64,000 bases of DNA from an uncultured Gammaproteobacteria bacterium (GCA_942491555.1 CALOBN010000006.1:128505-192504); one strand, 5' to 3'. Shown: positions 11,870 to 59,574, numbered from the stretch's first letter. Made by a program: numbers and translations. Notes: generated by a model not told the origin, from the letters alone.

Positions 11870-11952
11870 TGGGGCGCTGAAGCGATTACCGGTTTCTGCA
11901 TCTCCTGTGCCGCCCGCTCACCCACCGCCAAGGCTCCTTCAATAAGACCGCA
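11870..11952 (-). pseudogene. orphan diverged copy of the 3' end of the amine-oxidase gene
   Basis: 11904-11950 matches 12950-12996 (the 3' coding end of the gene at 12936..13997) at 39/47 nt by hand alignment. The minus-strand translation GLIEGALAVGERAAQEM compares with the intact GLIEGALAAGEMAAQGM. Homology stops exactly at the AATTGGATCCGACCCC motif. Confidence 0.65.
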
Positions 11953-11955
11953 GAA

Positions 11956-11971
11956 AATTGGATCCGACCCC
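11956..11971. repeat. AATTGGATCCGACCCC intergenic repeat unit
   Basis: The same 15-16-mer recurs as an inverted pair at 15940-15954 / 15990-16005. It shares the GACCCCTTWA core with 27895-27922 and 29733-29760. Confidence 0.6.
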
Positions 11972-12110
11972 TTAATACTTAATATAGATTAAGACTTCTT
12001 AACAATATGCTTAAACTTTGTTTTGCATCACGTATATTTTTATTACAAAACATCAGGCTATAAAGTGATACAGTGGCGGATGGTGTTAATTTTCAGGGAG
12101 GTCAAGAACA

Positions 12111-12785
12111 ATGAAAAAAGTAATCATCGTATTACTGTTAGCCCTATCCAGCTCAGTTTCAGCACAAATTGATGAAAAAGCATCTCAAAACCTCTCTAAC
12201 TCAGCCCCGATAGAAACACTGGAGGCTGCGGCTCCATTTTTTGGAAGTCTTGCCGGGGCGCCAACTTATAACCGAATTTTTGCTTCCGGTCCCTTCGTAG
12301 GATGTGATAACCCCAGCACTTTTTCGGCCACTGGCATCGGGATTTCTTTTGCATTGGTTCCGATCTACAGCCCCACAGGGGCAACACTGGTAGCAAGTCT
12401 TGACAACCCGGGCACTGACATCGGCGATCCCGTGCTCAGCGTCTACTGCGATCCGTTCGATGAATCAGATGCGTCGCTTAACCTGGCCGGCTATAACGAT
12501 GATTTCTTCGGGCTCATCAGTGCATTTGACGGCTCCGAAGGGATTGTTCTCGAGCCTAATACCCAATATTTTATGGTGGTCAGCCTTTTTGCTCCTGGCA
12601 GCATAGGCGGCGGCAACTTTGAACTCACGGTCGGTGCAACCTCACCTGGAGAAGACGTACTGTTTGGGTCACCGGCCTCGCTATCAGGGACTCAGCCAAT
12701 TCCAGTTAACAACCCGGCACTCCTGGCGCTGTTGATTGCGCTGATGGCTGGCCTCGGTGTGTTTGCGGTTCGTCGCTTCGCCTGA
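12111..12785 (+). CDS. small secreted protein with IPTL-CTERM/PEP-CTERM-like C-terminal sorting signal
   Basis: SD GGGAGG 9-15 nt upstream; signal peptide MKKVIIVLLLALSSSVSA. The C-terminus IPVNNPALLALLIALMAGLGVFAVRRFA is a short motif, then a TM helix, then a basic tail. The body has PPC-like LSVYCDPFD...NLAGYNDD. Very AT-rich context (16/60 G+C at 12001-12060). Confidence 0.7.
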   Translation: MKKVIIVLLLALSSSVSAQIDEKASQNLSNSAPIETLEAAAPFFGSLAGAPTYNRIFASGPFVGCDNPSTFSATGIGISFALVPIYSPTGATLVASLDNPGTDIGDPVLSVYCDPFDESDASLNLAGYNDDFFGLISAFDGSEGIVLEPNTQYFMVVSLFAPGSIGGGNFELTVGATSPGEDVLFGSPASLSGTQPIPVNNPALLALLIALMAGLGVFAVRRFA

Positions 12786-12810
12786 CGTTCCGGCTATTGG
12801 TTTGATTAGA

Positions 12811-12837
12811 AGGGCGACCATCGTGTCGCCCTTTTTC
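12811..12837 (+). terminator. rho-independent terminator
   Basis: AGGGCGAC (12811-18), loop CATCGT, GTCGCCCT (12825-32), then TTTTT; 26 nt after the stop at 12785. Confidence 0.8.
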
Positions 12838-12935
12838 ATTGCTTATGAACAAGCGTAAGTCAGTCGCTCTGGCTGTTATCTGCCGATGCAATAAAAATTG
12901 AATCGATCGGATGTTCCCGTGATTGTTCAAGCACC

Positions 12936-13997
12936 TTACCCCAGCATCCCCTGTGCCGCCATTTCACCCGCCGCGAGCGCCCCTTCAATAAGACCGGGAC
13001 TCAGGTTCGATGCCTCCGATACCGCAAACCGGAGGCGGCCGTCGAGCTGCGGCTGTCTGAGCACAGCAGGCCCCACGTCTGGATGCGCTCCCGCTTGTGC
13101 GAGGTCCAGATCAGTGACGATCCGGGGGTTTATGGCCCAGTCCTTGATGACCAGTTCCAGGGGCTGCGCCGCTTTGTCGCCAAAGCACTCGACCAGCTGA
13201 GCGAGGATCGCCTTTCTGAGCCCCGCCGGATCCCTTCGGCGTTGCTCCGGAGTCCAGCCAATGAAACCGAACAGCGCCGCCGGTTGATTGTCGATAGCCG
13301 AGTGATCGTGAACCTCTACGAGCGGTCCGCTGCGGCTGGCGACCCTGCCCGAAAGGCCCGCCTCGCGCCAAAATGGCCGTTCAAAGAGCGCCACGGCCTT
13401 GGCCTGGCTGGCCATCCAGGTCGGCGTCCCGCGCATGGCGCTGCGCAGACTTTCTGAAAGCCAGGGTAACTGCAGGGTTGCGAGGGCCACACGCAAAGGA
13501 ACAGAAACGATGACCCTTTGCGTTGTGATGATCTCCCCGGAGTCGAGATGGACGGCCAGGTGTTCCGAACCCGCTTCAAAAATACCGGTGACCGGGGTGT
13601 GGGTGGTGATATTGGCGCTGCCAACCCGCCGGGCAAGCTCGTCGATCATTGACACCGGCCCACCGACAATCCGCACCATGCCATCCTGTCCCGGCAACGG
13701 CTGGTACAGCGGCGCAGGACCATAACCGGTAATGACGGCATTGCCTTCATTAAATTGCGCAAAGGTCTCCAGGCCCAGCTTCGTCAGCCATCGCGCGACC
13801 ACCGGTTGGTATTTTGGCCAGACCCAGGTCGGGCCGAGGTCGGCAAGCGCGCGATGACTGAGCGGATCACGCAGGGAGCGAATGCGGCCGCCTAAATGGG
13901 CATCCGCCTCCACCACGCTCACGCCCGCTCCTGCCTCAACGAGTGTTGCGGCCGCGGTAAGCCCGGCAAGACCGGCGCCGATTACGACTACGTCCAT
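12936..13997 (-). CDS. FAD-dependent amine oxidase family oxidoreductase
   Basis: ORF 12936..14036; likely start ATG 13997 (MDVVVIGAGLAGLTAA Rossmann GxGxxG). Later EADAHLGGR, typical of flavin amine oxidases. Confidence 0.85.
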   Translation of the reverse strand: MDVVVIGAGLAGLTAAATLVEAGAGVSVVEADAHLGGRIRSLRDPLSHRALADLGPTWVWPKYQPVVARWLTKLGLETFAQFNEGNAVITGYGPAPLYQPLPGQDGMVRIVGGPVSMIDELARRVGSANITTHTPVTGIFEAGSEHLAVHLDSGEIITTQRVIVSVPLRVALATLQLPWLSESLRSAMRGTPTWMASQAKAVALFERPFWREAGLSGRVASRSGPLVEVHDHSAIDNQPAALFGFIGWTPEQRRRDPAGLRKAILAQLVECFGDKAAQPLELVIKDWAINPRIVTDLDLAQAGAHPDVGPAVLRQPQLDGRLRFAVSEASNLSPGLIEGALAAGEMAAQGMLG

Positions 13998-14022
13998 CAC
14001 TGAGCCCTTCACTGCGGGCGAG

Positions 14023-14778
14023 CTACTCCAGCCCACCCAGGGTCACGCTGATGGCCTGGCCGCTGACACCGCTGGATTCTTCGGTCGCAAGAAACGCGAT
14101 GAGCTCCGCCACCTCCCCCTGCGTGGGCACCCGGCCGGGCGGATACCCTGCAGCGCGCTCGGCCCATACCTCGTCAAACGTCATGCCGCGTCGCTCCGCT
14201 TCCGCTTCAGCCGAGCGGTCTGCCATCTCCGTGCGGACCCAGCCGGGCAGAACCGCATTGGAGGTAACCCCAAAAGGGCCGCCATCCAGGGCCACGGATC
14301 GCATCAAACCCAGCAAACCGTGCTTGGAGCTGGTGTAGGCACTGCCGGCATGTTCGGCGATCTCACCGGCGGTCGAGCTGGTGTAAACGACCCGGCCATA
14401 GCCCCGGTCCTTCATATCACCGACGACCAGGCGGGACAGGTAAAACGGCCCATCCAGATTGATGCGCAGAGTTTCGTGCCAGAGCTCCGGGTCCTGTTCC
14501 CAGATGACCCGCTCATGGGCGGAACCGATACCGTGATTACAGGCGAGGATGTCGATGGGCCCGAGGCGCTCAAGCGTCTCCCGGAATGCCTGCTCACAGC
14601 CTTCCGGACTGCCCAGGTCCGCCACCACGTAATCCAGACCCGTGGCAGCCAGCTCCGATTCAGTCCGGGCAACGCACATCACGCGGGCGCCGCGCGAGGC
14701 CAGCAGTTGCGCGACGGTCTTGCCGATACCCCTTCCTGCTCCGGTAACCAGTGCAACCCTGTTTTCAACTCCTGCCAT
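14023..14778 (-). CDS. SDR family oxidoreductase
   Basis: ORF 14023..14829; likely start ATG 14778 (MAGVENRVALVTGAGRGIGK, TGxxxGxG). Catalytic YTSSK (YxxxK) and an NAVLPG block. Confidence 0.9.
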   Translation of the reverse strand: MAGVENRVALVTGAGRGIGKTVAQLLASRGARVMCVARTESELAATGLDYVVADLGSPEGCEQAFRETLERLGPIDILACNHGIGSAHERVIWEQDPELWHETLRINLDGPFYLSRLVVGDMKDRGYGRVVYTSSTAGEIAEHAGSAYTSSKHGLLGLMRSVALDGGPFGVTSNAVLPGWVRTEMADRSAEAEAERRGMTFDEVWAERAAGYPPGRVPTQGEVAELIAFLATEESSGVSGQAISVTLGGLE

Positions 14779-14867
14779 GGCGTTCCGCCTCCCAGCTGTG
14801 TAATCCATCCAGGCACCTGCCCGGTACATCTCCGGATTCTACCCTGACGTCTCTATTCCGACGTGTA

Positions 14868-15836: not shown

Positions 15837-15939
15837 GACTAAGTCCTCATATCACCAACAAAATTGTTGGTGAACTCAAGCATAGGCTAGCCCACGGGCC
15901 TTTGCTCATGGCCAATCCTTTTATCCCATGCCCTAGAGT

Positions 15940-16005
15940 GGGTCGGATCCAATTAATCAGATCCAATTAGTCACTTTTGGCCGGCTTTCAATTTGGATCC
16001 GACCC
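15940..16005. repeat. inverted pair of GGGTCGGATCCAATT units
   Basis: GGGTCGGATCCAATT (15940-54) and AATTTGGATCCGACCC (15990-16005) are reverse complements apart from a 1-nt indel. There is an extra GATCCAATT copy between them. Confidence 0.65.
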
Positions 16006-16044
16006 CCTAAACCCGAAAACCGGTTCGTGATGCCGGGCTGATGT

Positions 16045-16389: not shown

Positions 16390-16596
16390 AGTTCATATTC
16401 CCGGGAAGTGTTGATGGGTGGCGGGACCGCAGCCCCGAAAATAAAAGTTTATTTCTAACCCGAAGCGTACCTTGTCTATCCAGATACTGTCGTGAATGCC
16501 CGCGAGAAATCTGACCAAGGATCCCGTATGGGCCATGCCCTGCTGCGCTCGTCAATCGCCTATAATTCTTCGTCACGTCAGCCTCTGGTCCCTAAC

Positions 16597-17475
16597 ATGA
16601 ACGAATCACAAGCTTCGCCCGCGAAAATGGCCTGGCCGGAATCGCTGGCGCCTATCGCCAACCGCCTGTGCTGCCCGGTCTGCAGGAGCGAACTGAATTT
16701 TACGGGTGAGCACATCGCCTGTACCGGATGCGCCCAGAATTATCCCCTGCTGGAGGGTATGCCACTGCTGGCGAAAGAGGGCACGGTGGAGAACTGGGCC
16801 CCTGAAACCACGATCAGCGAGGACAGTACCGAGTACCAGCAGGCCTACCAGGAGGTCGCCGAGGCCGAATTCTATAATCGCGAATACGAGCGACATCTGT
16901 TCAAGCGCTGGAGCACCGCTACCGAGTACCGGCTTCTGAACCGGCTGCTGGGTAGCCAGGGCCGCAGCGAGATCATCCTGGATATCCCGAGTGGTGGTGG
17001 CCGCCTGAGCCCGGGCATCGCGCCGCATGCAGACCTGATCATTGAGGCGGATATCGCCCTGGGCCAGATTCTTTATGGCTCACGCAAACCCGCGCTGGAG
17101 ACTCCGCAGCTGTGGATGACCGCCTCAGCGTTTCACATCCCGCTTCGCGACAACGCCGTCGACGGTACGGTGTGCCCCCGGCTCAACCACCACCTGCCCA
17201 GTGCGGCCGAACGTGAGCGGCTCATCGAGGAACTGTTGCGGGTATCACGGCGCTTCGTGGTCATGACCTTCTTCGATTATCACTCGTTCAAGAACTGGTG
17301 GCGGCGGGCGCGGGCGCCATTCAACAAGAAGCCGCCGAAGCTGACCATGACCGTGCAGAGGGTGCGGGAACTGGCCGAGGCCAATGGTGCGCGCCTGGTG
17401 GAATACCCCATGCTTTCGGCCTTGTCCTCCGGGCATCGCTACGCGCTGATGGTAAAAGAGGATGCCCCGGGCTGA
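16597..17475 (+). CDS. class I SAM-dependent methyltransferase with N-terminal Trm112-like zinc ribbon
   Basis: ORF 16492..17475; likely start ATG 16597. CCPVCRSEL...IACTGCAQNYPLLEGMPLL zinc ribbon, then ILDIPSGGGRL (motif I) and a methyltransferase-like core. Confidence 0.75.
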   Translation: MNESQASPAKMAWPESLAPIANRLCCPVCRSELNFTGEHIACTGCAQNYPLLEGMPLLAKEGTVENWAPETTISEDSTEYQQAYQEVAEAEFYNREYERHLFKRWSTATEYRLLNRLLGSQGRSEIILDIPSGGGRLSPGIAPHADLIIEADIALGQILYGSRKPALETPQLWMTASAFHIPLRDNAVDGTVCPRLNHHLPSAAERERLIEELLRVSRRFVVMTFFDYHSFKNWWRRARAPFNKKPPKLTMTVQRVRELAEANGARLVEYPMLSALSSGHRYALMVKEDAPG

Positions 17476-17483
17476 CGCCGCGT

Positions 17484-18365
17484 TCAGCTCTCCAGAATGA
17501 CCGACGCAGTGTCCAGCCGCCGGTAGGATCCGCTAGCGACATCGTAGCGCCCGGCCTTCCCCGGGCTGCTGGAACCCATCAGCAGCTTGCGCAGGCGGCT
17601 CTTAAGCCGCCGTAGCCGCCAGGCATGATGATTTCGCAGCTTAATGCCCGCGTCCACATTCCGGGCCGCCGCGGCACTACCTTCACAGTAGGCCAGCACC
17701 AGCGCCTCCCGCTCCCCGCCAGTAAAGGCAAGGTCGCCGTTGCGCATGCGCAGCAGGCAGGCCAGGTCCAACGCCGCCTCATCGCTGCCGGTGATGTCAT
17801 GCGCCGCGAGCGTCGCGTAGGGAAAATCGATGGCCAGCACCGGTTCTTTATTCGCGTCCAGGGTTCGCAACAGGTTGCGCGGCGCAGCGGTCGCCCAGTA
17901 AAGGCCGGCGCGATGAAGGCGGCCCAGCAACGCTCCGGACCAGCCCGCCAGTTGCAAACGCTCCGCAGCCGACAGTTCCGGGCACCGCAATTCCTGCTCC
18001 AGGTCGCGCCCCTCTACGGGGTCAAGGGCCAGGGCACTGAAGCGCAGGCCACCCAGGACCCTATGCTCCAGCCAGTAAATCGGCCGGGCCACGGGCAGCC
18101 CGCGGCGATGGGCATTCATCATGACCGTGAATTCGCGGTTGGCCCGGGACGATACGCCCAGCGTGCGCAGGCCAAGGTGTGCGGGAACAGCGTAGATTTT
18201 CAGGATCTGGCCGGGACGGTCGGGGGCTTCGAGGCGCAGCACCCGCGAGCGGGGCTTGTCCTGCAGAATGGACCAGTGGGCATGATCGGCGACCCGGCCC
18301 CCGGCTGCTTGCCCGGTAGCTTGCCAGGCAGCCTCCAGGTTGGTCCACAGTAACAAGTCGCTCAT
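17484..18365 (-). CDS. lipopolysaccharide kinase (Kdo/WaaP/InaA) family protein
   Basis: ATG 18365; 293 aa. Pattern ...RVLRLE...ILKIY...REF..M......GLPV..P...LE...LGG...SAL..D.. with later LLGRLHRAGLYW..AAPRNLL, which resembles the LPS-kinase fold. By-eye call. Confidence 0.65.
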   Translation of the reverse strand: MSDLLLWTNLEAAWQATGQAAGGRVADHAHWSILQDKPRSRVLRLEAPDRPGQILKIYAVPAHLGLRTLGVSSRANREFTVMMNAHRRGLPVARPIYWLEHRVLGGLRFSALALDPVEGRDLEQELRCPELSAAERLQLAGWSGALLGRLHRAGLYWATAAPRNLLRTLDANKEPVLAIDFPYATLAAHDITGSDEAALDLACLLRMRNGDLAFTGGEREALVLAYCEGSAAAARNVDAGIKLRNHHAWRLRRLKSRLRKLLMGSSSPGKAGRYDVASGSYRRLDTASVILES

Positions 18366-18491
18366 GGCACTTCACTCTTCTCACTTCCGGGGTGTGAATC
18401 CGTTCGAACCTCCACAGGCCGCGCCCGCTGCCCGGGAATGTTAAACCATAGATGGTTTGTTGGTCAGTCGCCTTCACCTCAGGCAAGCGAT

Positions 18492-19385
18492 TCAGGTATT
18501 CGATGCCCTGAAGATACTCCCGATCGAACGGTCAAGCATATGGTTGAATTCTTCATCGGACTGCTGGACAAAAAGCCCCTCACTGAGGGCCCGCGAGAAG
18601 CTCGCAACCATGCCGTTTTGCTGTGCCAGACGAGTATTCGCTTCTTCGCGGCTGTAGCCTCCGGACAGTGCCACAACCCTTAATGTTTTGGGGTGCGCGA
18701 TACATTCGGCATAAAGATTGTTCCTTTCTGGCAAAGTCAGCTTGAGCATGACCAGCTCGCCATCATCCAGAGCATCAAGGTGCTTTTTGAGCTCTCTCAC
18801 CAAAAGGTCTTCGGCCTGCGCCTTGTCCGGACAGTGGATATCGATTTCCGGCTCAATAATGGGCACCAGGCCGGCGGCGAAAATATGGCGGGCGATCTCA
18901 AATTGCTGATTCACAATGGCGGCGATGCCTTCAGCGTTGGCCTGCTTGATGACCGAACGCATTTTGGTACCAAAAACGCCCTCCTCCCTGGCTTTCCCCA
19001 GCAATGTGTCCAGGTTGGGGATAGGTTTCATGAGTTGGACCCCGTTGTGTTCATCGGCCAGGCCTTTGTCTACTTTCAGGATCGGAACGACGTTCTTCTC
19101 CTCCCACAAGTAACGTGCGGTCGGCTTACCATCAATTTCGCGATCCAGGGTGTTTTCAAAAAGAATCGCGGCCAGGATACGGTCACCTCCAAATGCCGGA
19201 CTGGTGATGATGCGGGTCCGCATCTCATGCACCTTGTCAAACATTTCTTCGTCCGAGGTATAGGCATCCCCGGGCACCCCGTAGAGCTGGAGGGCTTTTG
19301 GCGTACTGCCGCCACTCTGGTCCAGGGCCGCAATGAACCCCGGCTGGGTTTTCATTTTTTCCAGCTGTTTATTGAATATGCTCAC
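18492..19385 (-). CDS. class I fructose-bisphosphate aldolase (Fda type)
   Basis: GTG 19385, with GGAG 6 nt upstream. [31 protein letters not shown]...LKVDKGLA...NGVQLMKPI...FGTKMRS...LVPIIEPE...[14 protein letters not shown] is near-collinear with the staphylococcal-type class I aldolase as I remember it. Confidence 0.9.
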
Positions 19386-19630
19386 ATTTGTCTCCGTCGG
19401 TTCCTCATTAATCCTGATTAAGAATAGTGCTAAAGGGATGCACCCCGCATGCCCTGCGTCAATGAATGGTCACTGGCTGGGAAGAAACACCCAAAATACA
19501 GCTTGCGCTACTGCTTCGCAGCAGTGCTGCACAAAATACCCCGCTGTCTCCTGCACCATCCACACTCCGCGGTCATGAGCGACTTAAGCGAAATGTATCC
19601 GGCCCCTTTTACTGGGCTTAGAATACGCCG

Positions 19631-20761
19631 ATGAAGCAACCCCTGGTAAATACACTGCCTTCAGCCTGGTATCTTGAAGATGGACATTTCCAACGCGAGC
19701 TCGAAGCGATCTGGCTGAAGCAATGGCTGTTTGTGGGTCATGTGAGCGAATGGCCTGAGCGCGGAAGTTACCGGGTGTTGGCCGTTGGTAACCAGCAGTT
19801 GGTGGTTACCAGGGATCGCGAAGCGCAGTTCCATGCGTTCCACAATACCTGCCGGCATCGCGGCTCACGATTGTGCGAAACCAGTGCCGGGCGCTTCCGC
19901 GGCGGTCGCATCGTGTGTCCATACCATGCCTGGGCTTACGGCCTGGATGGCGGGTTGCTGTCGGCCCCACGCATGGAAGAAATTGAGGGTTTTGACAAGC
20001 GTGCGTATGGCCTGTACCGCATTGCGGTGACTGAGATTGACGGCTTTGTCTTCGTCAACGCCGGTCAGCCGCATAACGCGGTTGCGGGCGAAGCGTTGCT
20101 GGAAGGGCTCAAGCCCGTTCAGCCCTGGCCGACCCGCGACCTGGCCGTGGCCTACCAGGAGCAGCACGATATCGCCTGCAACTGGAAAGTGTTCTGGGAG
20201 AACTTCCTGGAGTGTTATCACTGCCCCGGGGTGCACCCCGAACTGTGTCGCATCGTGCCCTTGTACCGTGAAAGCGTCAGTCACCCGGGCGAGCTGCCTG
20301 ACGGGCATGCGTGGAAGAAAGCTGAGCATGCGCCGCGGCTCCGCGAGGGTGCCGTAACCTGGAGCCCGGACGGCAGCACGGATTTACCCTTGTTCAAGAG
20401 CCTGGATAAAGAGCAGCAAACTGCCGGTATGACGTTTGGTGACGCCATTCCCTCGGTCTACCTGGTAGGGCATGTGGATTACTTTCGCACGGTACGTGTG
20501 ATGCCGGTCAGCGCCGCCGTTACACAACTGACCGTGACCTGGTATGTGCACGCTGACACCCTGGCGACCTCCACGCCGGATGTGCAGGCACTGACCGCTT
20601 TCGCCCGGCAGGTGGTCATGGAGGATGCGCGGGTCGCCGAACTTAACCAGCAGGGTCTGGGCTGCCGGGTACATGAACAAGGCGTGTTGTCGCCCGCGGA
20701 AGGCGATGTGGCTGCATTTCAGAACTGGGTCCGCGACCGTCTTGAACTGTCCAAGGACTGA
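19631..20761 (+). CDS. Rieske [2Fe-2S] aromatic-ring-hydroxylating oxygenase alpha subunit family
   Basis: ATG 19631. Rieske motif CRHRGSRLC...CPYHAWAYGLDG, then a C-terminal catalytic domain with ENFLECYHCPGVHP. Confidence 0.85.
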   Translation: MKQPLVNTLPSAWYLEDGHFQRELEAIWLKQWLFVGHVSEWPERGSYRVLAVGNQQLVVTRDREAQFHAFHNTCRHRGSRLCETSAGRFRGGRIVCPYHAWAYGLDGGLLSAPRMEEIEGFDKRAYGLYRIAVTEIDGFVFVNAGQPHNAVAGEALLEGLKPVQPWPTRDLAVAYQEQHDIACNWKVFWENFLECYHCPGVHPELCRIVPLYRESVSHPGELPDGHAWKKAEHAPRLREGAVTWSPDGSTDLPLFKSLDKEQQTAGMTFGDAIPSVYLVGHVDYFRTVRVMPVSAAVTQLTVTWYVHADTLATSTPDVQALTAFARQVVMEDARVAELNQQGLGCRVHEQGVLSPAEGDVAAFQNWVRDRLELSKD

Positions 20762-20788
20762 GCTGTACATCACCGCTAAACATGTTGT

Positions 20789-49850: not shown

Positions 49851-49939
49851 TTTATCCTGACCTAAGTGAAACTCGTGAGAAAAATCAGAAGAAAAACCCC
49901 GGTCACATGGATTGCTTTGGCCTTCTGTGTGATCAGCAA

Positions 49940-51583: not shown

Positions 51584-52627
51584 ATGACCGCTGAAGCCAC
51601 GCAGCGCGCATTCTTCAGCATTCTGCTGCTGATCGTCACGCTCGCTTTCTTCTGGGTGATTGGCGGATTCATTCAGCCGATCTTCTGGGCGACTGTGCTC
51701 GGGATCGTTTTCTTCCCGGCCTACAACTCCATCAAGGGTCGGTTGGGAGGACGCGAGACCGTCGCATCTGGCGTGACGCTCGTCGTCGTTTTGCTTGTCG
51801 CGATTATCCCCATTACGTGGATCGTTTCGGTCGTCGCCAGCCAGGCCGCCGGGTTGTACGTCAATATCCGCAGCGGCGAAATCGATGTCGGCGCCGTTTT
51901 CGACTGGTTCAATGCGAAACTCCCCGTCGTGGTGTCATGGCTCGAATCGATGGGCATTGACGCCGAGAAAATGCGTGCCATGGCATCGTCGTTCGGCCTG
52001 CGGGTGAGCCAGTTCCTGGCCAACATCCTGGTGGGCTTTGGCCAGAACATCGTGCGGTTCTCGCTCATGTTCACGCTGATGCTCTACATCCTGTTTTTCG
52101 TGTTCCGTGACGGCCAACGCATTCTCGACGCAGCGATCCTGGCCGTTCCGCTCGACGAAGACAAGAAGCAGGAGTTGCTCATGCGCTTTGCCGAGGTTTC
52201 ACGTGCGACGATAAAGGGCACAGCCATCATTGGCGTCGTCCAGGGAGGGATCGGCGGCATCGCCTTCGCGGCGCTTGGTATTCCCTCGGCGGCGCTCTGG
52301 GGTGTGCTCATGGTGCTCCTGAGCGTCGTGCCCGCCGTTGGCCCAGCCCTGGTGTGGATGCCGGCCACTCTTTACTTTTTCGCAGTCGGGCAGTATGTCC
52401 AGGGTGCCATCCTGCTCATTGTCGGCGGTGTTTTCATCAGCTTGGCGGACAACGTGCTGCGCCCGGTTCTTGTCGGCCGCGACACGCGTATGCCCGACTA
52501 CCTGGTGCTCGTTTCTACCCTCGGGGGGCTCCTCCTGTTCGGGCTCGCCGGTGTAGTCATCGGCCCGATGATTGCTGCCTTGTTCATCTCTGTCTGGGGC
52601 ATGGCAGCGAAGGAATACGGAGAATGA
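51584..52627 (+). CDS. AI-2E family transporter (PerM/UPF0118)
   Basis: ATG 51584; 347 aa with about 8 TM helices. The C-terminal LADNVLRPVLVG block is typical of the family. Stop at 52625-27, and the next gene's ATG is at 52629. Confidence 0.85.
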   Translation: MTAEATQRAFFSILLLIVTLAFFWVIGGFIQPIFWATVLGIVFFPAYNSIKGRLGGRETVASGVTLVVVLLVAIIPITWIVSVVASQAAGLYVNIRSGEIDVGAVFDWFNAKLPVVVSWLESMGIDAEKMRAMASSFGLRVSQFLANILVGFGQNIVRFSLMFTLMLYILFFVFRDGQRILDAAILAVPLDEDKKQELLMRFAEVSRATIKGTAIIGVVQGGIGGIAFAALGIPSAALWGVLMVLLSVVPAVGPALVWMPATLYFFAVGQYVQGAILLIVGGVFISLADNVLRPVLVGRDTRMPDYLVLVSTLGGLLLFGLAGVVIGPMIAALFISVWGMAAKEYGE

Positions 52628-52628
52628 A

Positions 52629-54509
52629 ATGTCGAAAGTGAATAACCAACCAAAAGAAAGAAATGACGGGCACCCATCGATGGCATGGGCCCTGGTGCTG
52701 GCCGGATTGATGGCGTTCGTGCTCCAGGCCTGTGAAAAGAGCGTCGCACCGACCTGCGAAGGAGACACCATGACCGATAACAATTGCCCTGAACCCGGAG
52801 CGGTCGACGACCCCTTCATTACGGAACTGGCGAAACGACGCCAGTGGTACGATTCCCGGGAACTCGGAGAGGTCGGAATCGAACCCGCCGAAGTGGCACG
52901 CACGTTCGATTTGCCAGTCAGTAACGCGGTCGGGAAGGTGATTCCGCCCACGGACGACGGCTCCCAGGATTCTCTCGCGCTGAAGATCTGGATGATCGAG
53001 CAGGCGCGCCATACGGTGGATGCGATCTACTACATCTACAAAGACGATCTTGCCGGACAGGCGGTGCTGGGCGCCTTGTGCGACGCCGTGATTCGTGGCG
53101 TGGACGTTCGCCTCGTCGTTGATGCAGTGGGGTCCTTCAGCTTTCCAAAGTCGGCCCTGAGGATGCTGGATGCCTGTGAGGAAGACGCCGGGTACATCAG
53201 GAATGCCGAGGGCCAGCCGACGCGACAACGTGCGCGCGTCCAGGTTGCCGTCTTCAATGCGCTGACCAACCTGTCCGCCAGCCCCAACCGTCGCTCACAT
53301 GACAAGCTGCTGATTACGGACGGGGACTTTGCAGACAAAGCACTGCTTATCACGGGGGGACGGAACATTGCCCTCGACTACTACGGGCTCACCGAAACCG
53401 GTGAGTTCGACCCCCGGACCTATCGCGATGTGGAGCTGCTGTTACGTCCCGCCGACACTCCCGGGAAAGACGATATCGGCGTATTGACCAGTGGATACTT
53501 CGGCGCGCTGTTCCTGTTCAAGGGCAATGACCTGCTCGAGGCGCACCACAGTAAGCCCGCCCGGGCAAGGTACCGTTCGAAGCGGACCCACGCGAGCGAG
53601 GCGCTGGCAAAACTCAAGCAGTTTCCAGCGATGCGGGAACGGTTCGCGAAAATGCCTGAGTACACGAGCGAGGGCTTCGTGGAGACCGGGGTCCGGCTGG
53701 TAGAACAGTTGTCGCATGTCGTCGACAAGCGGGTTGTACGCAATGCGGTGGACAACTATCTGAACAGCCCCAACTCCGTCCTGTTCGTTCTCAATGAGGT
53801 CCTGAGCCAGACATCCGCCGGCGGGCAATCGCGTATCTGCTCGCCCTACCTCTTTCTGGCGCGCTACGAGGACTCGGACGGCCAGGTCGTCGTAGACGAA
53901 GCGGAGGCGATCCGGGCGTACATCGAAGCGAATCCGGATGCCGAGATCGAAATTATGACCAATTCGGCGATGACCTCGGACAACTTTCCGGCACAGTCCG
54001 TCATCGACTTCGACACGGCGCCGCGACTGCTCCTGGATGAAGAACTGCGCCAGCGCTGGCTGGACCTGGGATCAGAAGACGAAACGCTTGCCGAGTTAAC
54101 CAACAGCGACGCCTGGAAGCAGCAGGTCAACCATCCGCGAATACGCATCTACCAGACCGGCCTTAACGACTCCGACCTGTTCCCGGGGGGAACAGAGACT
54201 TATGGCAAGCTGCATGCCAAGTTCTGGCAAGCCGAACCCTACGGATTCATCGGCACGACCAACTTCGACTACCGATCGAGGTTGTACAACAGCGAGATGG
54301 GCTACTTCTTCGAAGCCGAGCCGCTGGCGGAAGATCTGAATACCGTGTTCGAGGAACTGAAATCGCAGTCCTACCGCTGGGGTTCTCCGGAGTGGCTGCA
54401 AATGCGCGAGAACATGAAAGCCGCGGGTGGGATTAAAGGCCAGACGCTGCGCCGGCAGCGAGCCATATTCAAAACTTTGCGGGCCACCGGGCTCGAATGG
54501 GAGTTTTGA
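52629..54509 (+). CDS. phospholipase D (HKD) family lipoprotein, paralog A
   Basis: ORF 52572..54509; ATG 52629. Lipobox-like FVLQAC. HKD-1 RRSHDKLLITDG...ITGGRNIALDY and HKD-2 GKLHAKFWQAE...GTTNFDYRS. Confidence 0.85.
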   Translation: MSKVNNQPKERNDGHPSMAWALVLAGLMAFVLQACEKSVAPTCEGDTMTDNNCPEPGAVDDPFITELAKRRQWYDSRELGEVGIEPAEVARTFDLPVSNAVGKVIPPTDDGSQDSLALKIWMIEQARHTVDAIYYIYKDDLAGQAVLGALCDAVIRGVDVRLVVDAVGSFSFPKSALRMLDACEEDAGYIRNAEGQPTRQRARVQVAVFNALTNLSASPNRRSHDKLLITDGDFADKALLITGGRNIALDYYGLTETGEFDPRTYRDVELLLRPADTPGKDDIGVLTSGYFGALFLFKGNDLLEAHHSKPARARYRSKRTHASEALAKLKQFPAMRERFAKMPEYTSEGFVETGVRLVEQLSHVVDKRVVRNAVDNYLNSPNSVLFVLNEVLSQTSAGGQSRICSPYLFLARYEDSDGQVVVDEAEAIRAYIEANPDAEIEIMTNSAMTSDNFPAQSVIDFDTAPRLLLDEELRQRWLDLGSEDETLAELTNSDAWKQQVNHPRIRIYQTGLNDSDLFPGGTETYGKLHAKFWQAEPYGFIGTTNFDYRSRLYNSEMGYFFEAEPLAEDLNTVFEELKSQSYRWGSPEWLQMRENMKAAGGIKGQTLRRQRAIFKTLRATGLEWEF

Positions 54510-54587
54510 CCTGTTATCAGAGCCCCCGTCCGGGCCGTGATTCGCCCCAATCGTGCCCCGAACCGCAACCTGGCTTGCCTGCGCAGA

Positions 54588-55187
54588 TCAGTCTGATGGC
54601 CGTACCAGATCTGAGATGGTGTCCATCTGCTCGCCCCAGGTCGCGTAGCACCCGGCCCAGGCGCCGGTTTCGCAGGTTTTCTTGCCTTCGCGTTTAAGTG
54701 CGAAGATACGCTGTGGGCTTATTCCGGCGCTCGCATAGGCTTCAAAATCGGAGCTGGAGTCGCCGTAGGCGGCGACGAAGTCACAGCCGCCCGCTTCATA
54801 GGACTCCAGCACACGTTCTTTGAACGCGGCGTGATCCTTCCGGTCGTCGCGCGATTCGGTCAGGTGCAGCCTGCCCGGCGGAAATTCGTTCTCGTCGAGC
54901 CAATCGCGAATACCTCCCCGCAACCCCCGAATTCGGGCGCTAAGGTAGACGATAAGGTATCCCGAATCGGCAAACGCACGAACAGCGGTTGCAGCGCCCT
55001 CCCGAGCGGTCTTAATGGACAGGACATCCGGCGTAAGGGTTCCGTCGATGTCAAACACCACGCATTCTGACTGCACAGCCGTTGCCAGCTCCGGCTGGTC
55101 GACGCTGCGGATTATCGCTACGCCCACCATGAGCAAAAGCATAAAGAGTAACAGCCAGCCCACTGCCGGAATTTTTATGGTGTGCAT
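54588..55187 (-). CDS. membrane-anchored LNS2 (lipin/Ned1/Smp2)-like DxDxT phosphatase
   Basis: ORF 54588..55331; ATG 55187 (MHTIKIPAVGWLLLFMLLLMVGVAII TM anchor). VVFDIDGTLT (lipin catalytic DIDGT), GYLIVYLSAR, FPPGRL and AAYGDSSSDFEAYASAGISPQRIFAL are collinear with LNS2 blocks. Confidence 0.7.
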   Translation of the reverse strand: MHTIKIPAVGWLLLFMLLLMVGVAIIRSVDQPELATAVQSECVVFDIDGTLTPDVLSIKTAREGAATAVRAFADSGYLIVYLSARIRGLRGGIRDWLDENEFPPGRLHLTESRDDRKDHAAFKERVLESYEAGGCDFVAAYGDSSSDFEAYASAGISPQRIFALKREGKKTCETGAWAGCYATWGEQMDTISDLVRPSD

Positions 55188-55302
55188 GACCCCGGGCCCG
55201 ACCCGCACTGCAGGCGCCGACGGACAAACACGGCCGTCGGGTGCGGTACGGGCCTGCCGAAAAATATCATGGCAAGGCGTCGACCTGCCAATTCCGCCGG
55301 AT

Positions 55303-57183
55303 TCAGAATTGCCATTGGAGCCCCGTGGCACGCAAGGTCTTGAATATGGTGCGCTGCTTGCGCAGCGTCCATCCTTTCATACCATCCAGCTCCATCAGAT
55401 TTTTGCGCATTTGCAGCCATTCCGGTGAACCCCAGCGGTAGGACCGCGATTTCAGTTCCTCGAACACGGAACCCAGGTCTTCGGCCAGCGGCCCGGCGTG
55501 GAAGAAATAGCCCATTTCGCTGTTATACAGCCGTGAGCGGTAGTCGAAGTTGGTCGTGCCGACAAATCCGTAAGGCTCGGCCACCCAGAACTTGGCATGC
55601 AGCTTGCCGTAAGTCTGGGTACCGCCCGGGAACAGGTCAGAGTCATTAAGACCCGTCTGGTAGATGCGTATTCGCGGGTGGTTCACCTGTCGCCGCCACT
55701 CGTCGCTGCTGGTCAGCTCGGCGGTCGTTTCATCCTCCGATTTCAGATCCAGCCAACGCTCCTGCAATTCCGGATCGAGCAGCAGGCGGGGCGCCATGTC
55801 GAAATCGATGACGGACTGAGCCGGAAAGTTGTCGGACGTCAATGCAGAATTCGTCACAATCTCGATCTCGGCATCCGGGTTTGAATCGATATAGGCCCGA
55901 ATCGAGGCTGCCTCGTCGAGGATCACCGTGCCATCGGAGTCCTCGTAGCGCGCCAGAAACAGGTAGGGCGAGCAGATGCGCGAGTTTCCGGCAGCGTCCG
56001 TTCTGTCCAGGATTTCATTCAGGACGAAAAGCACGGAATTGGGACTACGCTGGAGGTTCACGATTGCGTCGCGCACGACGCGCTTGTCGACTACGTTCGA
56101 CATTTGCTGGGCCAGCAGAACGTCCGCCGGCAAAAAACCCTCGGACATGAAATCCGGAATCTCTGCGAAGCGTTGCTGCATTATCGGGAAGCTTTTCAGT
56201 TTCGCCAACGCCTCACGTGCCCGGGCGCGCTCCGATTGGTAAATGATGCGGGCATTATCGGTATTGACCGCCTCGAGCAGGCGGTTAGCCTTGAACAGGA
56301 ACAGCAGGCTGAAGTACCCACTGGTCAGGTCCCCGACACCTTGCTCATCGGGAACCTCTACGGGCCGCAACAATATTTCGAGATCGCGGTAGGCCTTGGG
56401 ATCAAATTCGCCGTCTTCGGTGAGCCCGTAGTAGTCGAGCGCGATGTTCCGCCCTCCCGTGATGAGGTATGCCTGCTCCCCGAATTGCCCATCCGTAATC
56501 AGCAACTTGTCGTGGGAACGGCGATTGGGGCTGGCGGAAAAATTGGTCAGCGCGTTGAACACAACGACCTGGACGCGGGCACGTTGCCGGGTCGGAAGGC
56601 CCTCGGCGTTCGTCATGTATCCGGCGTCCTCCTCGCAGGAGTCCAGCATTCTGAGCGCGGGCTTTGGAAAACTGAATGAACCGCCTGCGTCGACAATCAG
56701 GCGGACGTCTACGCCGCGAATCACTGCATCGCAAAGCGCGCCCAGCACGGCATAACCGGCGAGGTCGTCACTGAAAATATAGTAGGCCGCGTCCACGGTA
56801 TGACGTGCCTGCTCGATCATCCAGATCTTCAGCGCCAGCGAGTCAAGTGCTCCGGTATCGGTCGGCGGCACCAGTTTACCGACGGCGTTCTGTATCGGAG
56901 TTTCGTATGTCCGGGCCGTTTCCGTGGGCTCAATCTCGAGCTCGCGGAGGTCCCGGGACGAATACCACTGGCGTCGGTCGAGCAGTTCCGAGATGAATGC
57001 ATCGTCTACCGCGCCCGGTGCGGGGCAACTGGCCGCGGGCAATGTACCTGCTTCGCAGGACGGTGCGGGCGTCGTGGCACAGGCTTGCAACAAAACCGCC
57101 ACGACCCCGGCCAGGAACACGGCAAGCAGTTTCTTCAGAGGGCTGATGATGCTGTCCTCAGGTTGGCGCGTTGGATGTGGCAT
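55303..57183 (-). CDS. phospholipase D (HKD) family lipoprotein, paralog B
   Basis: ORF 55303..57288; ATG 57183 (or 57222). Lipobox-like VLLQAC. The same two HKD blocks as paralog A (RRSHDKLLITDG, GKLHAKFWVAE...GTTNFDYRS). High aa identity to A by eye; the last 150 nt are about 80% identical. Confidence 0.85.
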   Translation of the reverse strand: MPHPTRQPEDSIISPLKKLLAVFLAGVVAVLLQACATTPAPSCEAGTLPAASCPAPGAVDDAFISELLDRRQWYSSRDLRELEIEPTETARTYETPIQNAVGKLVPPTDTGALDSLALKIWMIEQARHTVDAAYYIFSDDLAGYAVLGALCDAVIRGVDVRLIVDAGGSFSFPKPALRMLDSCEEDAGYMTNAEGLPTRQRARVQVVVFNALTNFSASPNRRSHDKLLITDGQFGEQAYLITGGRNIALDYYGLTEDGEFDPKAYRDLEILLRPVEVPDEQGVGDLTSGYFSLLFLFKANRLLEAVNTDNARIIYQSERARAREALAKLKSFPIMQQRFAEIPDFMSEGFLPADVLLAQQMSNVVDKRVVRDAIVNLQRSPNSVLFVLNEILDRTDAAGNSRICSPYLFLARYEDSDGTVILDEAASIRAYIDSNPDAEIEIVTNSALTSDNFPAQSVIDFDMAPRLLLDPELQERWLDLKSEDETTAELTSSDEWRRQVNHPRIRIYQTGLNDSDLFPGGTQTYGKLHAKFWVAEPYGFVGTTNFDYRSRLYNSEMGYFFHAGPLAEDLGSVFEELKSRSYRWGSPEWLQMRKNLMELDGMKGWTLRKQRTIFKTLRATGLQWQF

Positions 57184-57293
57184 CTGCTTATCCTGCCCGA
57201 TCAGGCTGTAATTTTCGATCATCTCGCACCTAAGATATTCATTATTCCGTATCCCCGGGTTAGCTACCTGGGGGCCTATCATGCGCACCGTGA

Positions 57294-57842
57294 CTAGGAA
57301 CCCTGCACCTTCATCAGATTATGCAGGGTGGTGCCCAGCAGCAAGGCGATCAATCCGATAAAAATCAGTTTAACGCCCATCAGGACGCCGATGGCGATTA
57401 CGCCTGAAAACGGCGCCTGGAAAAAAAGCAGGCAGGCCAGCAGAACCGAAAGCACACCGCCGGCAAACAGCCAGCCCTTCCCCTTGCTGCCCTCGAGAGT
57501 GATGGCCACGATGATTTCCACCAGGCCGTCCATGAACAGGTAGCTTGCAAGGACAATGGTCAAAACGCCGCTGGCCAGAAGCGGATGTCCAACGATGAAA
57601 ACACCCGCCAGCAAGGTAAGCACCCCCACCAGGAATTTCCAGGCACCACTTCCGAAGGAATCGGCCCGGAATACCCAGATCATACGTAAGACACCAGCCA
57701 CCGTGACCACCAGCCCCACGAACAGCAACATCGACTCACCGACCACGAACGGAGCGGCCAGGGCCGCGATGCCGAGAATGATCGTAACGATGCCGATGAC
57801 TTTTGCGCTGGCGGAGGCGTCCGATTCGCTTGCGGTATTCAT
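57294..57842 (-). CDS. HdeD/DUF308 family membrane protein
   Basis: ORF 57294..57917; ATG 57842 (MNTASESDASASAKVIGIVTIILGIAALAAPF...). Paralog of 44240..44773. Confidence 0.8.
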   Translation of the reverse strand: MNTASESDASASAKVIGIVTIILGIAALAAPFVVGESMLLFVGLVVTVAGVLRMIWVFRADSFGSGAWKFLVGVLTLLAGVFIVGHPLLASGVLTIVLASYLFMDGLVEIIVAITLEGSKGKGWLFAGGVLSVLLACLLFFQAPFSGVIAIGVLMGVKLIFIGLIALLLGTTLHNLMKVQGS

Positions 57843-58014
57843 AGCTCTTCTCCCTGCCCGCATCACGAAAACTTTTGTCTCGTCGTCGGGTTCCTGGTTG
57901 TGGATTGACAGATGCACGCGAGTGTAAATGATTTGGTCGGTTTCCGAGTAGCTCCGGGCTCACCCAACAAGATGCCGTCTGCAAAACCTGTATACAAAAT
58001 CTGCTTTATAAGGT

Positions 58015-59520
58015 TTAAAGCTGGTTCTCAGGCGCAATTCTCAGAAACCAGGCGGAAAACCGGCGCCACCACGAAGCCAGCGGCTCTTTCGTCTCCACGA
58101 CTTCCTCACCATCAATATTGGCGTGCCAGCGCAGTTTTCCCTGCTCATTCAATGTGACACGGTAGGTCCATTGGGGAAGGCTGCTGAACAATTGTTCCGA
58201 CAGGCTTTCTGTCATTTCAGGCGAAAAGACCACCACGCCCATTTCCGAGTTGATCGCGATTGACCGGGGGTCCAGGTTCAGTGATCCCACGAACACGCTT
58301 TCGCGGTCAAATAGCATGGCCTTGGTATGCATGGTCATGGTCTGGTCTTCAGCAGCAACCGCATCGGCGCGCGCTTCAAATAACTCGACGCCCGCCCGGA
58401 TGATGTCTTTACGATACCTGGCATAACCCGAATGGACTGCCGTGTGGTTATTGGCTGCCAGGGAATTGGTGACAATGACAACTCGCACACCCTTGTCCAC
58501 GATGGAGCGCCAGAAATCAACGCCTGCCTCGCCGGGAATAAAGTAGGGTGTCATGATCACCACTTCAGAAGTGACTTCAGTGACAACTTCGGTCAGCGCC
58601 TTGACCAGCAGCCTGTTGTCAACATCAATCGCGGTGACGAGCTTGTCCGGATCATCCGTGATGACAATGGCATCAGCCGAGTAAAACCGGGTTTCCTGTT
58701 GACCGATACTCAGCATCAGATCCGAGTCGAACGCGTCCTGGTAGTGTTTGCGGGCCGCCTCAAGTTTTTCGCGAGAGAGAGTGTTGCGGAAATCCGCCAA
58801 TTCCTGCTCGGAAATGCGCCCCACCACGGCCTCTGCCGGCACCGAACGTTCGTGATTCCAATAACGGTCAAACTCAACGGACAGGGCCTCGGAAACCTCA
58901 CCAAAGATGAGCATATCGAAGTCCAGGAACTCGCCTTCCTGATTCAGGTTGAAATACTCATCGGCAATGTTTCGGCCACCCACAACGGCGGCAGCATTAT
59001 CAACAATAAATGACTTGTTATGCATTCGCCGGTTGGCGCGACTGAAGTCGCCCAGGTAGTTAAGCCCTTTGATTCCGGTTCTGGAAACCGGGTTGTACAA
59101 ACGCAACTCGATATTGGGGTGACCATCGATGATGGTCATTGCCTCATCCCCCACGGTGGTGAAAATATCGTCCAGCAGGAAGCGGACGCGAACACCCCGG
59201 TCGGCGGCGGCGAACAGCGCCGAGGCAAAAACCTGCCCGGCCAGGTCGTTTTTCATCAGAAAATACTGCGCGTCGATGGTTTTTTCCGCGGCTTCGATCA
59301 GGCGCAAGCGCGCACCCAGGGCATCGGTTCCGTCGACGAGCGGGTAGAAACCGGAAGGGCCGGGATTGATTGCCTGCCATGTCTCAATTGTCTGTTTCAG
59401 CGCTGTGGATTCACTGGCATCCATGGCAAAACTGGCCTCACGGGGCGTGTCAAAATCGACCGTTGCACAGCCAGCCAGCGCTGCAAAACAAAGAATGAGT
59501 AAATGATTGTTAATGCGCAT
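58015..59520 (-). CDS. phospholipase D family lipoprotein (ClsC-like architecture)
   Basis: ATG 59520. Canonical lipobox LAGC. HKD motifs MHNKSFIVDN...GGRNIADEY and MHTKAMLFDR...GSLNLDPRS. Confidence 0.85.
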   Translation of the reverse strand: MRINNHLLILCFAALAGCATVDFDTPREASFAMDASESTALKQTIETWQAINPGPSGFYPLVDGTDALGARLRLIEAAEKTIDAQYFLMKNDLAGQVFASALFAAADRGVRVRFLLDDIFTTVGDEAMTIIDGHPNIELRLYNPVSRTGIKGLNYLGDFSRANRRMHNKSFIVDNAAAVVGGRNIADEYFNLNQEGEFLDFDMLIFGEVSEALSVEFDRYWNHERSVPAEAVVGRISEQELADFRNTLSREKLEAARKHYQDAFDSDLMLSIGQQETRFYSADAIVITDDPDKLVTAIDVDNRLLVKALTEVVTEVTSEVVIMTPYFIPGEAGVDFWRSIVDKGVRVVIVTNSLAANNHTAVHSGYARYRKDIIRAGVELFEARADAVAAEDQTMTMHTKAMLFDRESVFVGSLNLDPRSIAINSEMGVVVFSPEMTESLSEQLFSSLPQWTYRVTLNEQGKLRWHANIDGEEVVETKEPLASWWRRFSAWFLRIAPENQL

Positions 59521-59552
59521 CCGGAGAAAACTCCTCTTGAACGATCATTTTA

Positions 59553-59574
59553 CGGGCTCGAATGGGAGCTTTGA
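59553..59574 (+). pseudogene. orphan copy of the last codons and stop of PLD paralog A
   Basis: CGGGCTCGAATGGGAGCTTTGA matches 54488-54509 (CGGGCTCGAATGGGAGTTTTGA) at 21/22 nt. It reads GLEWEL* against the intact GLEWEF*. Intergenic, on the opposite strand to both neighbours. Confidence 0.6.

Follow-up and report, generated by a model that had tools for sequence, protein, structure and literature searches.

Orphan 3′ ends of three enzyme genes in a gammaproteobacterial chromosomal segment: possible scars of integrase-independent recombination

Three genes with a second copy of their own 3′ end

This study concerns a 64-kb stretch of DNA from an uncultured gammaproteobacterium, referred to throughout as the window and numbered from its first letter, and in particular three places in it where a gene is followed by a block of other DNA and then by an orphan copy of that gene's own 3′ end. 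The window is a chromosomal segment with a GC content of 60%; its nearest database relatives are metagenome-assembled genomes labelled Lysobacterales, and more distant matches lie in Halieaceae. The genes affected encode a flavin amine oxidase (case 1), an aldo/keto reductase (AKR; case 2) and a phospholipase D (PLD) family protein, PLD-A (case 3). In all three cases the target gene is intact and direct repeats of its own 3′ end flank the block, the proximal copy being formed by the last codons of the gene while the distal copy, in the same orientation, lies beyond the intervening DNA. An earlier interpretation made from the sequence alone (the sequence-only reading) had described this recurring architecture, with co-oriented orphans at the distal end of each block, and self-BLAST of the window, an exhaustive 25-mer scan and tblastn bear it out. 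The architecture is confirmed as real, and none of the three repeats is due to chance.

By self-BLAST, the two copies of case 1 (12944–12996 and 11898–11950) match at 44 of 53 positions (83%, E 3e-8), those of case 2 (35276–35368 and 33040–33132) at 71 of 93 (76%, E 8e-15) and those of case 3 (54488–54512 and 59553–59577) at 23 of 25 (E 0.15), with start-to-start spacings of 1046, 2236 and 5065 nt, respectively. They are the sole non-paralogue repeats of comparable strength within the window. When two mismatches at most were allowed, a comparison of all 25-mers of the window on both strands returned nothing beyond case 2, case 3 and the real PLD paralogues, and since we estimate that about 0.02 chance matches would be expected at this stringency, the case 3 repeat is not noise. 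A tblastn search of all window proteins against the window recovered the AKR and amine-oxidase orphans as the only intergenic gene fragments. The sites proposed earlier for the three orphans stand, whereas their lengths do not, all of them being slightly longer, with the distal coordinates given above. Table 1 lists these and the other features discussed.

Table 1. Position, strand and supporting evidence of the features discussed (window coordinates)
Feature	Position	Strand	Evidence
Solo arm of hairpin-forming inverted-repeat element, 26 nt, TTAAGGGGTCGGATCCAATTTTCTGC	11950–11975	−	26-nt match to L001 2543–2568; motif scans
Orphan 1, amine-oxidase C-terminal codons (GLIEGALAVGERAAQEM)	11898–11950	−	self-BLAST
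Case 1 intervening block	11976–12935		composition; translation
ORF of case 1 block, 224 aa, signal peptide and C-terminal hydrophobic anchor	12111–12785	+	translation
Flavin amine oxidase, intact	12936–14036	−	Pfam Amino_oxidase 2.8e-38; 100% match to P0001, 353 aa
Gene in 1.8-kb low-GC block	28124–28900		
DXD-motif glycosyltransferase in 1.8-kb low-GC block	28938–29675		
Third low-GC gene after 1.8-kb block, rhamnosyltransferase-like ORF	29817–30800		
Orphan 2, last 31 AKR codons (33040–33132) plus frame extension	33021–33132	−	self-BLAST; tblastn E 5e-9
Possible relic, N-terminal helix-turn-helix of IS3-family OrfA	33297–33470	+	HTH_Tnp_1 E 2.3e-3; HTH_23 E 1.7e-3
Serine hydrolase, beta-lactamase/penicillin-binding protein family, secreted, 566 aa, complete	33481–35181	−	Pfam Beta-lactamase 2.6e-49
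AKR tail, proximal copy of repeat 2	35276–35368	−	self-BLAST
AKR, intact aldo/keto reductase	35272–36327	−	Pfam Aldo_ket_red 1.6e-56
PLD-A, phospholipase D family, 645 aa, intact	52572–54509	+	Pfam PLDc_2
Case 3 insert, 5,040 bp	54513–59552		Pfam; comparison with L169, L171, L172, L173, L174
LNS2 phosphatase (case 3 insert)	54588–55331	−	Pfam
PLD-B (case 3 insert)	55303–57288	−	Pfam
DUF308 gene (case 3 insert)	57294–57917	−	Pfam
PLD-3 (case 3 insert)	58015–59520	−	Pfam
Orphan 3, original PLD-A end	59553–59577	+	three-way alignments; 25-mer scan
EEP, phosphatase-family gene, convergent with PLD-A end	59594–60529	−	homologue search query

Pfam scans found no recombinase, integrase, resolvase or transposase domain in any window open reading frame (ORF) of at least 80 residues, and neither the blocks nor the rest of the window contain an excisionase or other mobile-element gene. 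The earlier statement that no integrase survives in any block therefore holds and extends to the whole window, in which co-oriented orphan 3′ fragments lie downstream of intact homologues without any recombinase. The sole hint of a mobile element is the IS3-like fragment of case 2 (Table 1), whose HTH_Tnp_1 and HTH_23 matches are both below the Pfam cut-off. Inverted repeats were not found at the block ends, and transposon insertion with target-site duplication was rejected, there being neither such repeats nor a transposase, and the duplications measuring 22–93 bp where 2–14 bp would be expected. Plasmid databases gave no match to the intervening DNA of cases 1 and 2, and IMG/VR gave no real match to the case 3 repeat, the identical core of case 1 or the arm of the hairpin element described below; the case 1 core has one 18-nt match (L180), which falls within an unrelated ORF and was dismissed as chance. 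Rfam and tRNA scans for RNA-gene targets or known motifs returned nothing, and consensus scans for promoters and terminators in the orphans and at the junctions nothing above background. In composition only the case 1 block is atypical, those of cases 2 and 3 being genome-typical.

Ancestry of the displaced ends

The history of case 3 could be read directly from relatives, here designated by their locus numbers, which were found by a homologue search with EEP, the gene convergent with the PLD-A end. Their EEP proteins are 94% (L169, on a 760-kb contig), more than 90% (L173 and L174) and 72% (L171 and L172) identical to that of the window. In all five, PLD-A and EEP lie tail to tail about 20 nt apart, and the uninterrupted sequence ...GGGCTCGAATGGGAGTTTTGAGCTACACGCGG... 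bridges the two gene ends. In the window this homology splits: PLD-A keeps ...GGGAGTTTTGA and is then followed by new sequence, and orphan 3 picks up again at CGGGCTCGAATGGGAGCTTTGAGCTACACGCGG, 5,040 bp further on, still contiguous with the 3′ end of EEP as in the relatives, none of which carries the insert at this position. Case 3 is thus a true insertion of 5,040 bp within the last 7 codons of PLD-A, flanked by a duplication of 22–25 bp, and its distal copy is the original PLD-A end, in place and with its native flank attached. The proximal copy comprises the last 7 codons of PLD-A, the stop codon and 3 nt; the repeat contains an identical stretch of 16 nt, and both copies share a C at the first position that is T or A in all of the relatives. 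The duplicated stretch is therefore the lineage's own sequence, and no divergent surrogate end is involved. PLD-A itself is 91.7% and 92.9% identical at the nucleotide level to its counterparts in L169 and L173, its similarity to orthologues shows no clear break along the gene, and its adjacency to the AI-2E-family transporter gene is conserved in L171 and L172.

Part of the insert was likewise shown to be the lineage's own PLD-B/LNS2 DNA: this portion is 93.8% identical to L169 12723–15403, a segment that sits 5′ of PLD-A in L169, on the opposite side from its place in the window. The insert has no terminal inverted repeats and no terminal repeat besides the 25-mer. Since its edge lies 33 nt upstream of the PLD-3 start codon, the four insert genes now follow EEP on the same strand. 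The view that DNA had been integrated into the 3′ end of a gene is hence substantiated for case 3 by five relatives, in the comparison with empty sites that the sequence-only reading had called for; none of the relatives retrieved was informative for case 1 or case 2, and a common cause of the kind known from e14 and phage 21, which that reading had invoked, is not upheld. In e14, which is integrated in icd, the intact gene's end lies inside the element and a C-terminal pseudogene at the far end (PMC13626634, citing Hill et al. 1989). On the e14 model, the distal orphan would be the native end.

In case 1, the proximal copy consists of the 53 nt ahead of the final two codons of the amine oxidase, for which the database gene call starts at 13997 (353 aa). 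The block has a GC content of about 50%, compared with about 62% in its flanks, and is compositionally foreign; its only ORF runs on the strand opposite the amine oxidase and has no match to a Pfam or NCBIfam family. Orphan 1, about 100 nt upstream of an M20 peptidase gene (10234–11796, minus strand), encodes GLIEGALAVGERAAQEM, 17 residues identical to those of the closest orthologues (P0002 of L001 and P0003 of L163), whereas the intact amine oxidase differs from the orthologues by three replacements within the same 17 residues. At the DNA level the orphan matches the orthologues at 48 of 53 (L001) and 47 of 53 positions (L163), and the intact tail at 45 and 42 of 53. A 15-nt identical block lies at the 5′ edge of the repeat, and over the final 100 nt of the intact gene, 12 of 28 informative sites show differences unique to the window, as against 45 of 191 overall. 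These comparisons are weakly compatible with orphan 1 being the displaced original end. An empty site was sought through the M20 peptidase in a metagenome scan, in which the best relatives reach 67% identity and lack shared synteny, and exact-sequence look-ups of the amine oxidase and EEP proteins of the window returned no record. Beyond three close relatives, the nearest homologues of the amine oxidase (60–70% identity) belong mostly to Rhodobacteraceae and other alphaproteobacteria, which suggests that the pair formed by the amine oxidase and the SDR gene upstream of it may itself have been acquired horizontally by this gammaproteobacterial lineage.

Case 2 differs. The block had been read as an insert with an IS3 relic; the relic stands as a sub-threshold HTH_Tnp_1 match only, and the content of the block is mainly the complete gene of a 566-residue serine hydrolase, co-oriented with the AKR gene, genome-typical in its GC content at third codon positions (0.70) and with sub-threshold class C and esterase matches only in NCBIfam. 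Less than 10 nt separate the cut end of the possible OrfA fragment from the stop codon of the hydrolase gene, and orphan 2 has its broken edge about 140 nt away from the fragment. The frame of the orphan continues for five codons past the repeat to a TAG at 33021–33023, about 70 nt upstream of a TPR gene (30918–32951, minus strand). The closest AKR orthologue, in L003, is 89% identical in protein and 86% in DNA; of the sites that distinguish the intact gene from the orphan, it shares all but one with the intact tail, more distant relatives likewise favour the intact tail, and identity to L003 is uniform, at 85–90%, along the whole gene, for which reason a chimeric AKR gene was rejected. Judging by these alignments, in which the relatives side with the intact tail and L003 is evenly similar throughout, it is the intact AKR end that was vertically inherited. 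The polarity is thus the reverse of the e14 model, with orphan 2 as the outlier.

Orphan 2 is about equally distant (70–78%) from all AKRs retrieved. Compared with the intact tail it has 8 synonymous codons, all at family-conserved residues, and 9 replacements elsewhere, a pattern from which it follows that orphan 2 once belonged to a functioning AKR homologue with its own line of evolution. Identical cores in the repeat do not exceed 14 nt. No empty site was found through the TPR gene, whose closest relatives (69%, 54% and 51%) have other upstream genes and no AKR tail, and at the more distant AKR loci synteny is lost at the AKR stop codon. Just 3′ of that stop codon, GGGGTCAGAGTC motifs occur in L003 (2492–2530) and L068 (9077–9106); the motif of L068 is a perfect palindrome, GGGGTCAGAGTCATGCATGACTCTGACCCC, and that of L003 is followed by tandem CAGAGTCAAGTGC repeats.

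Hairpin repeats, fluid surroundings and gene relics

At the case 1 junction a solo arm of a hairpin-forming inverted-repeat element is fused gaplessly to the 5′ edge of orphan 1. Neither a partner arm nor a hairpin was detected there (z = +1.0), and the same result led us to reject the idea that the arm and a partner enclose orphan 1. Full copies that fold into hairpins are present in the window at 15937–16008 and three times in the variable part of L001 (2546–2645, 3877–4097 and 4878–4950), where they lie between small gene blocks; their arms read (A/T)AAGGGGTCGGATCCAATT, with GGGGTCAGAG as variants, and their loops measure 35–185 nt. The element has no Rfam match and its arm no exact copy in IMG/VR; it could be a miniature inverted-repeat transposable element or REPIN-like element, or a recombination site. 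By inspection, the repeats lack the RYYYAAC/GTTRRRY boxes of attC, and in a window without an integrase an integron gene cassette was accordingly rejected. Nor does the motif have the boxes or symmetries that define tRNA 3′ fragments, integron attC sites, Tn3-type inverted repeats or dif-like sites, and these identities were likewise rejected by inspection.

Related repeats mark other boundaries. Two 26-nt inverted repeats, AAGGGGTCnGnnTnAAGGGGTCAGAG (22/26), at 27896–27925 (plus strand) and 29727–29756 (minus strand) bracket a 1.8-kb low-GC block (27.9–29.7 kb; Table 1) that looks like a transposase-less cassette, and a AAAGGGGTCAGAGCCC-type motif lies at the breakpoint of an 8-kb indel (window about 24464–24480, L001 1909–1930). 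The indel itself is a segment of six genes at 16501–24462, including those of a Rieske oxygenase, a Na+/H+ exchanger and a TPR paralogue, that is present in the window and absent in L001 (site 1927–2012).

The surroundings of the orphans are fluid in other respects as well. Similarity of L001 and L003 to the window ends a few nucleotides from the stop codons of the amine oxidase and the AKR, respectively. The SDR gene upstream of the amine oxidase (window 14023–14829) has suffered an internal deletion of 624 nt in L001 (4959–5100), where the equivalent of window 14110–14733 is missing and the first and last codons are joined into an ORF of 41 residues. In the relatives, 3′ stumps of PLD paralogues lie directly upstream of co-oriented genes (L169 9514–9840; L173 6209–6535 and 9541–10197). 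The cls-like gene that precedes EEP is intact in L171 (481 aa), reduced to a 3′ fragment of 157–168 residues in L173, L175 and L176 and to a stump of about 109 residues in L169, and a 219-residue 3′ stump of a PLD-B-like gene lies upstream of PLD-A in L173. That gene copies are lost from their 5′ side, with the 3′ ends left over and independently of any insertion, is thus documented in this lineage, and the decay of paralogues or alleles, which the sequence-only reading had mentioned as one possible cause, is directly seen in relatives.

Case 3 belongs to a lipid-remodelling cluster (49907–60529) that encodes a cardiolipin synthase, scoring above its NCBIfam cut-off, an AI-2E-family transporter, three further PLD-family proteins, the LNS2/lipin-like phosphatase, the DUF308 protein and the EEP-family phosphatase/nuclease. 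Because identity to L171 varies sharply from gene to gene (96.5% for AI-2E, 89% for PLD-A, 71% for EEP and 65% for cls), a recombination mosaic is suggested. Three intergenic regions of the phospholipase/phosphatase cluster share a conserved site of 20 nt that includes a direct repeat, TGATGA-N5-TGATGA (CCTGATGAAAATATGATGA; 46604–46625 and 48305–48326 on the plus strand, 61464–61485 on the minus strand), which may be the operator of a response regulator (Pho-box-like). Two further observations concern single genes. The 5′ part of a DcaP-like outer-membrane protein gene (46660–48150) contains an imperfect tandem repeat with a 54-nt period at 47875–47957. A DUF885 homologue (36276–38537) is apparently split: the ORF at 37455–38537 covers only profile positions 188–529, and the 390-residue ORF before it (36276–37448), without a match in Pfam, is aligned to L003 in two different frames, which could reflect a frameshift or a fused gene.

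Origin of the orphan ends

We favour, with about evenly balanced confidence, the view that the orphans are scars of integrase-independent recombination at gene 3′ boundaries in a mosaic, fast-rearranging region, to which the decay of gene copies has been added, and that the three cases have differing histories. A DNA segment would arrive from a related genome, or be copied from elsewhere in the same genome, and pair with a resident gene across homologous sequence; its far, non-homologous end would then be joined illegitimately, or by a very short match, just inside the last codons of the resident. The outcome would be a complete gene end ahead of the new DNA and a resident end moved to its far side, which may be called 3′-end displacement, and which would require no integrase and only one-sided or short homology. 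Such displacement appears most likely for cases 3 and 1. That the orphan is the former end of the resident gene, contiguous with its downstream flank, is shown for case 3 and compatible with the data for case 1, while the TPR relatives of case 2 have other upstream neighbours. Case 1 would share the origin of case 3, with a low-GC, single-gene block. Case 2 would go back to a second, divergent AKR homologue that long remained functional and then lost all but its last 31 or so codons beside an insertion sequence (IS). The bias of the relics toward 3′ ends, which the relatives show as well, could plausibly come from deletions having to spare the signals of the next gene downstream.

Several points weigh against this view. 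No sigma-70-like sites turned up when the orphans were scanned for promoters by a simple method, so that the argument from downstream signals is so far without support. A donor arrangement was found for none of the cases, so that the homologous anchor and the illegitimate joint are inferred, and the microhomology at the case 3 junctions is at best the 6-nt TTTTGA, in a weak alignment. In case 1, the intact tail matches L001 at 30 of 38 positions after the shared 15-mer, which is within the gene-wide spread, 14% of windows along the gene being as low; the notion that this tail is foreign by its identity to L001 was therefore rejected. A flanking repeat of 22–25 bp would be equally expected from a site-specific crossover in a short core. 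Finally, case 2 needs a separate story, and one mechanism covers the recurring architecture only in part.

The last but one of these points leads to site-specific integration of the e14 or phage-21 type, in which small islets that had lost their integrase, or were mobilised in trans, would have crossed over in a short core, each carrying a surrogate gene end and leaving the native end as the distal orphan. Co-oriented direct repeats of gene ends flanking each block are what such integration would produce; case 3 adds a clean empty site and a 16-nt identical stretch, and case 1 a 15-nt identical block, a low-GC insert, an orphan nearer to the orthologues and a hairpin-element arm exactly at the junction. 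We nevertheless regard this origin as rather unlikely. Three different target genes would require three specificities, the blocks and the window contain no integrase, excisionase or mobile-element gene, and IMG/VR holds no element carrying the hairpin motif or the case 3 repeat. The blocks of cases 2 and 3 are typical of the genome in composition; in case 3 the insert is native chromosomal DNA and both copies of the repeat are native-like, in case 2 the polarity is wrong and an identical core of more than 14 nt is lacking, and even case 1 fits the predicted polarity weakly. The hairpin repeats admit of a different enzyme-dependent origin, since they occur at the case 1 junction, at block borders in L001, around the 27.9–29.7 kb block, at the 8-kb indel and after the AKR stop codon in two relatives: they might be the recombination sites of an undescribed, non-integron cassette-shuffling system whose recombinase acts in trans from elsewhere in the genome. 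Single-gene blocks would then be inserted or exchanged at the 3′ ends of resident genes, with the displaced gene ends remaining. We consider both the system and its action at gene ends improbable.

Duplication followed by loss deserves more weight, although we hold it, too, to be a minority possibility. Two nearby copies of a gene, whether tandem, segmental or an acquired allele, would have existed, one of them would have been deleted from its 5′ side, and what appears as an insert would be the DNA between them. The stepwise truncation of the cls-like gene and the PLD-B-like stump in relatives provide a direct precedent, orphan 2, which has a weak IS relic next to it, was under purifying selection while it evolved as a distinct homologue, PLD paralogues are numerous in the window, and tandem duplication with reciprocal losses would be expected to give the cyclic permutation in which PLD-A and PLD-B/LNS2 are found when the window is compared with L169. 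However, a second copy of the AKR or amine-oxidase gene was seen in no relative, case 3 would take three events, and the conserved adjacency of AI-2E and PLD-A in L171 and L172 favours a simple insertion. Orphan 1, moreover, is about 90% identical to orthologues in other organisms and 83% to its own intact copy; since it is nearer to the former, a recent in-genome duplication is excluded for case 1. That the arrangement is an artefact, arising from random matches or from a chimeric metagenome assembly that joined strain variants, seems very improbable. The window apparently comes from a poorly sampled, probably metagenome-derived contig of 224 kb, and the case 3 repeat has only 25 nt and a BLAST E-value of 0.15. 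Yet among 4e9 comparisons no other non-homologous 25-mer pair was found, and this repeat falls exactly at the PLD-A end of the relatives, the repeats of cases 1 and 2, at E 3e-8 and 8e-15, show divergence of a coding type, the flanking ORFs are all intact, and a divergence of 8–24% between copies is unlike an assembly join at a shared k-mer.

Set beside known systems, 3′-end displacement without an integrase resembles several and coincides with none. The e14 and phage 21 loci (icd ... prophage ... icdC) share with the window an intact gene end at one edge of the insert and a co-oriented C-terminal fragment at the other, and the differences between copies in cases 1 and 2 can be called largely synonymous (in case 2, 8 synonymous codons and 9 replacements). 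However, e14 is a 15-kb prophage with its own integrase and SOS-induced excision, whereas the blocks of the window measure 1, 2.2 and 5 kb, lack recombinase and phage genes and involve three genes unrelated to one another; case 2 runs against the e14 polarity, and a divergent surrogate is missing from case 3. A closer parallel in mechanism may be found at effector loci of Rhs proteins and of type VI secretion (T6SS), where displacement of 3′ ends has been proposed to occur via homology-facilitated illegitimate recombination (PMC5361080, citing Jackson et al. 2009), with pairing in the conserved gene body, an illegitimate far joint and, as a result, strings of orphaned 3′ regions (PMC5361080). 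There, as at loci of contact-dependent inhibition, an incoming segment anchored in the conserved part of the gene would add a new 3′ end and cargo and shift the old 3′ end downstream without an integrase. Those genes, in contrast, encode polymorphic toxins whose variable tips and immunity genes are under selection, whereas the genes of the window encode ordinary enzymes (amine oxidase, AKR, phospholipase D), and its orphans are stumps of 25–93 nt that have no cargo of their own and for which no donor was identified.

Cargo-only blocks bounded by direct repeats that include a gene 3′ end also recall cis-mobilizable elements (CIMEs), att-flanked elements that lack recombination genes, as at the 3′ end of fda in Streptococcus thermophilus. 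CIMEs adjoin or derive from identifiable integrative and conjugative elements (ICEs) with cognate integrases and share att sequences with them; for the blocks of the window, neither an ICE partner nor a shared att was seen. Relics of decaying paralogues offer a last comparison: stepwise 5′ truncation in the relatives leaves 3′ stumps upstream of co-oriented genes, and orphan 2 lies near a possible IS relic, but random decay alone does not predict a co-oriented, full-length homologue immediately upstream and its stop codon at the block edge three times in 64 kb. The architecture is best regarded as adding examples to known kinds of recombination scar, rather than as a new integration system.

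If 3′-end displacement without an integrase does act on ordinary metabolic genes, it would be a simple route by which genes could be added or swapped behind a gene that remains unbroken. In case 3, it would have put four lipid-metabolism genes downstream of EEP on the same strand, and orphan ends in general could serve as natural markers of the places and the order of such events. The hairpin repeat found at several breakpoints is the one lead able to raise the importance of these observations, whose practical value is modest unless the repeat proves to be a recombination site. With repeats that are 92%, 83% and 76% identical, and with the stepwise relics of its relatives, the region offers a compact, dated set for the study of gene order in an uncultured gammaproteobacterial lineage.

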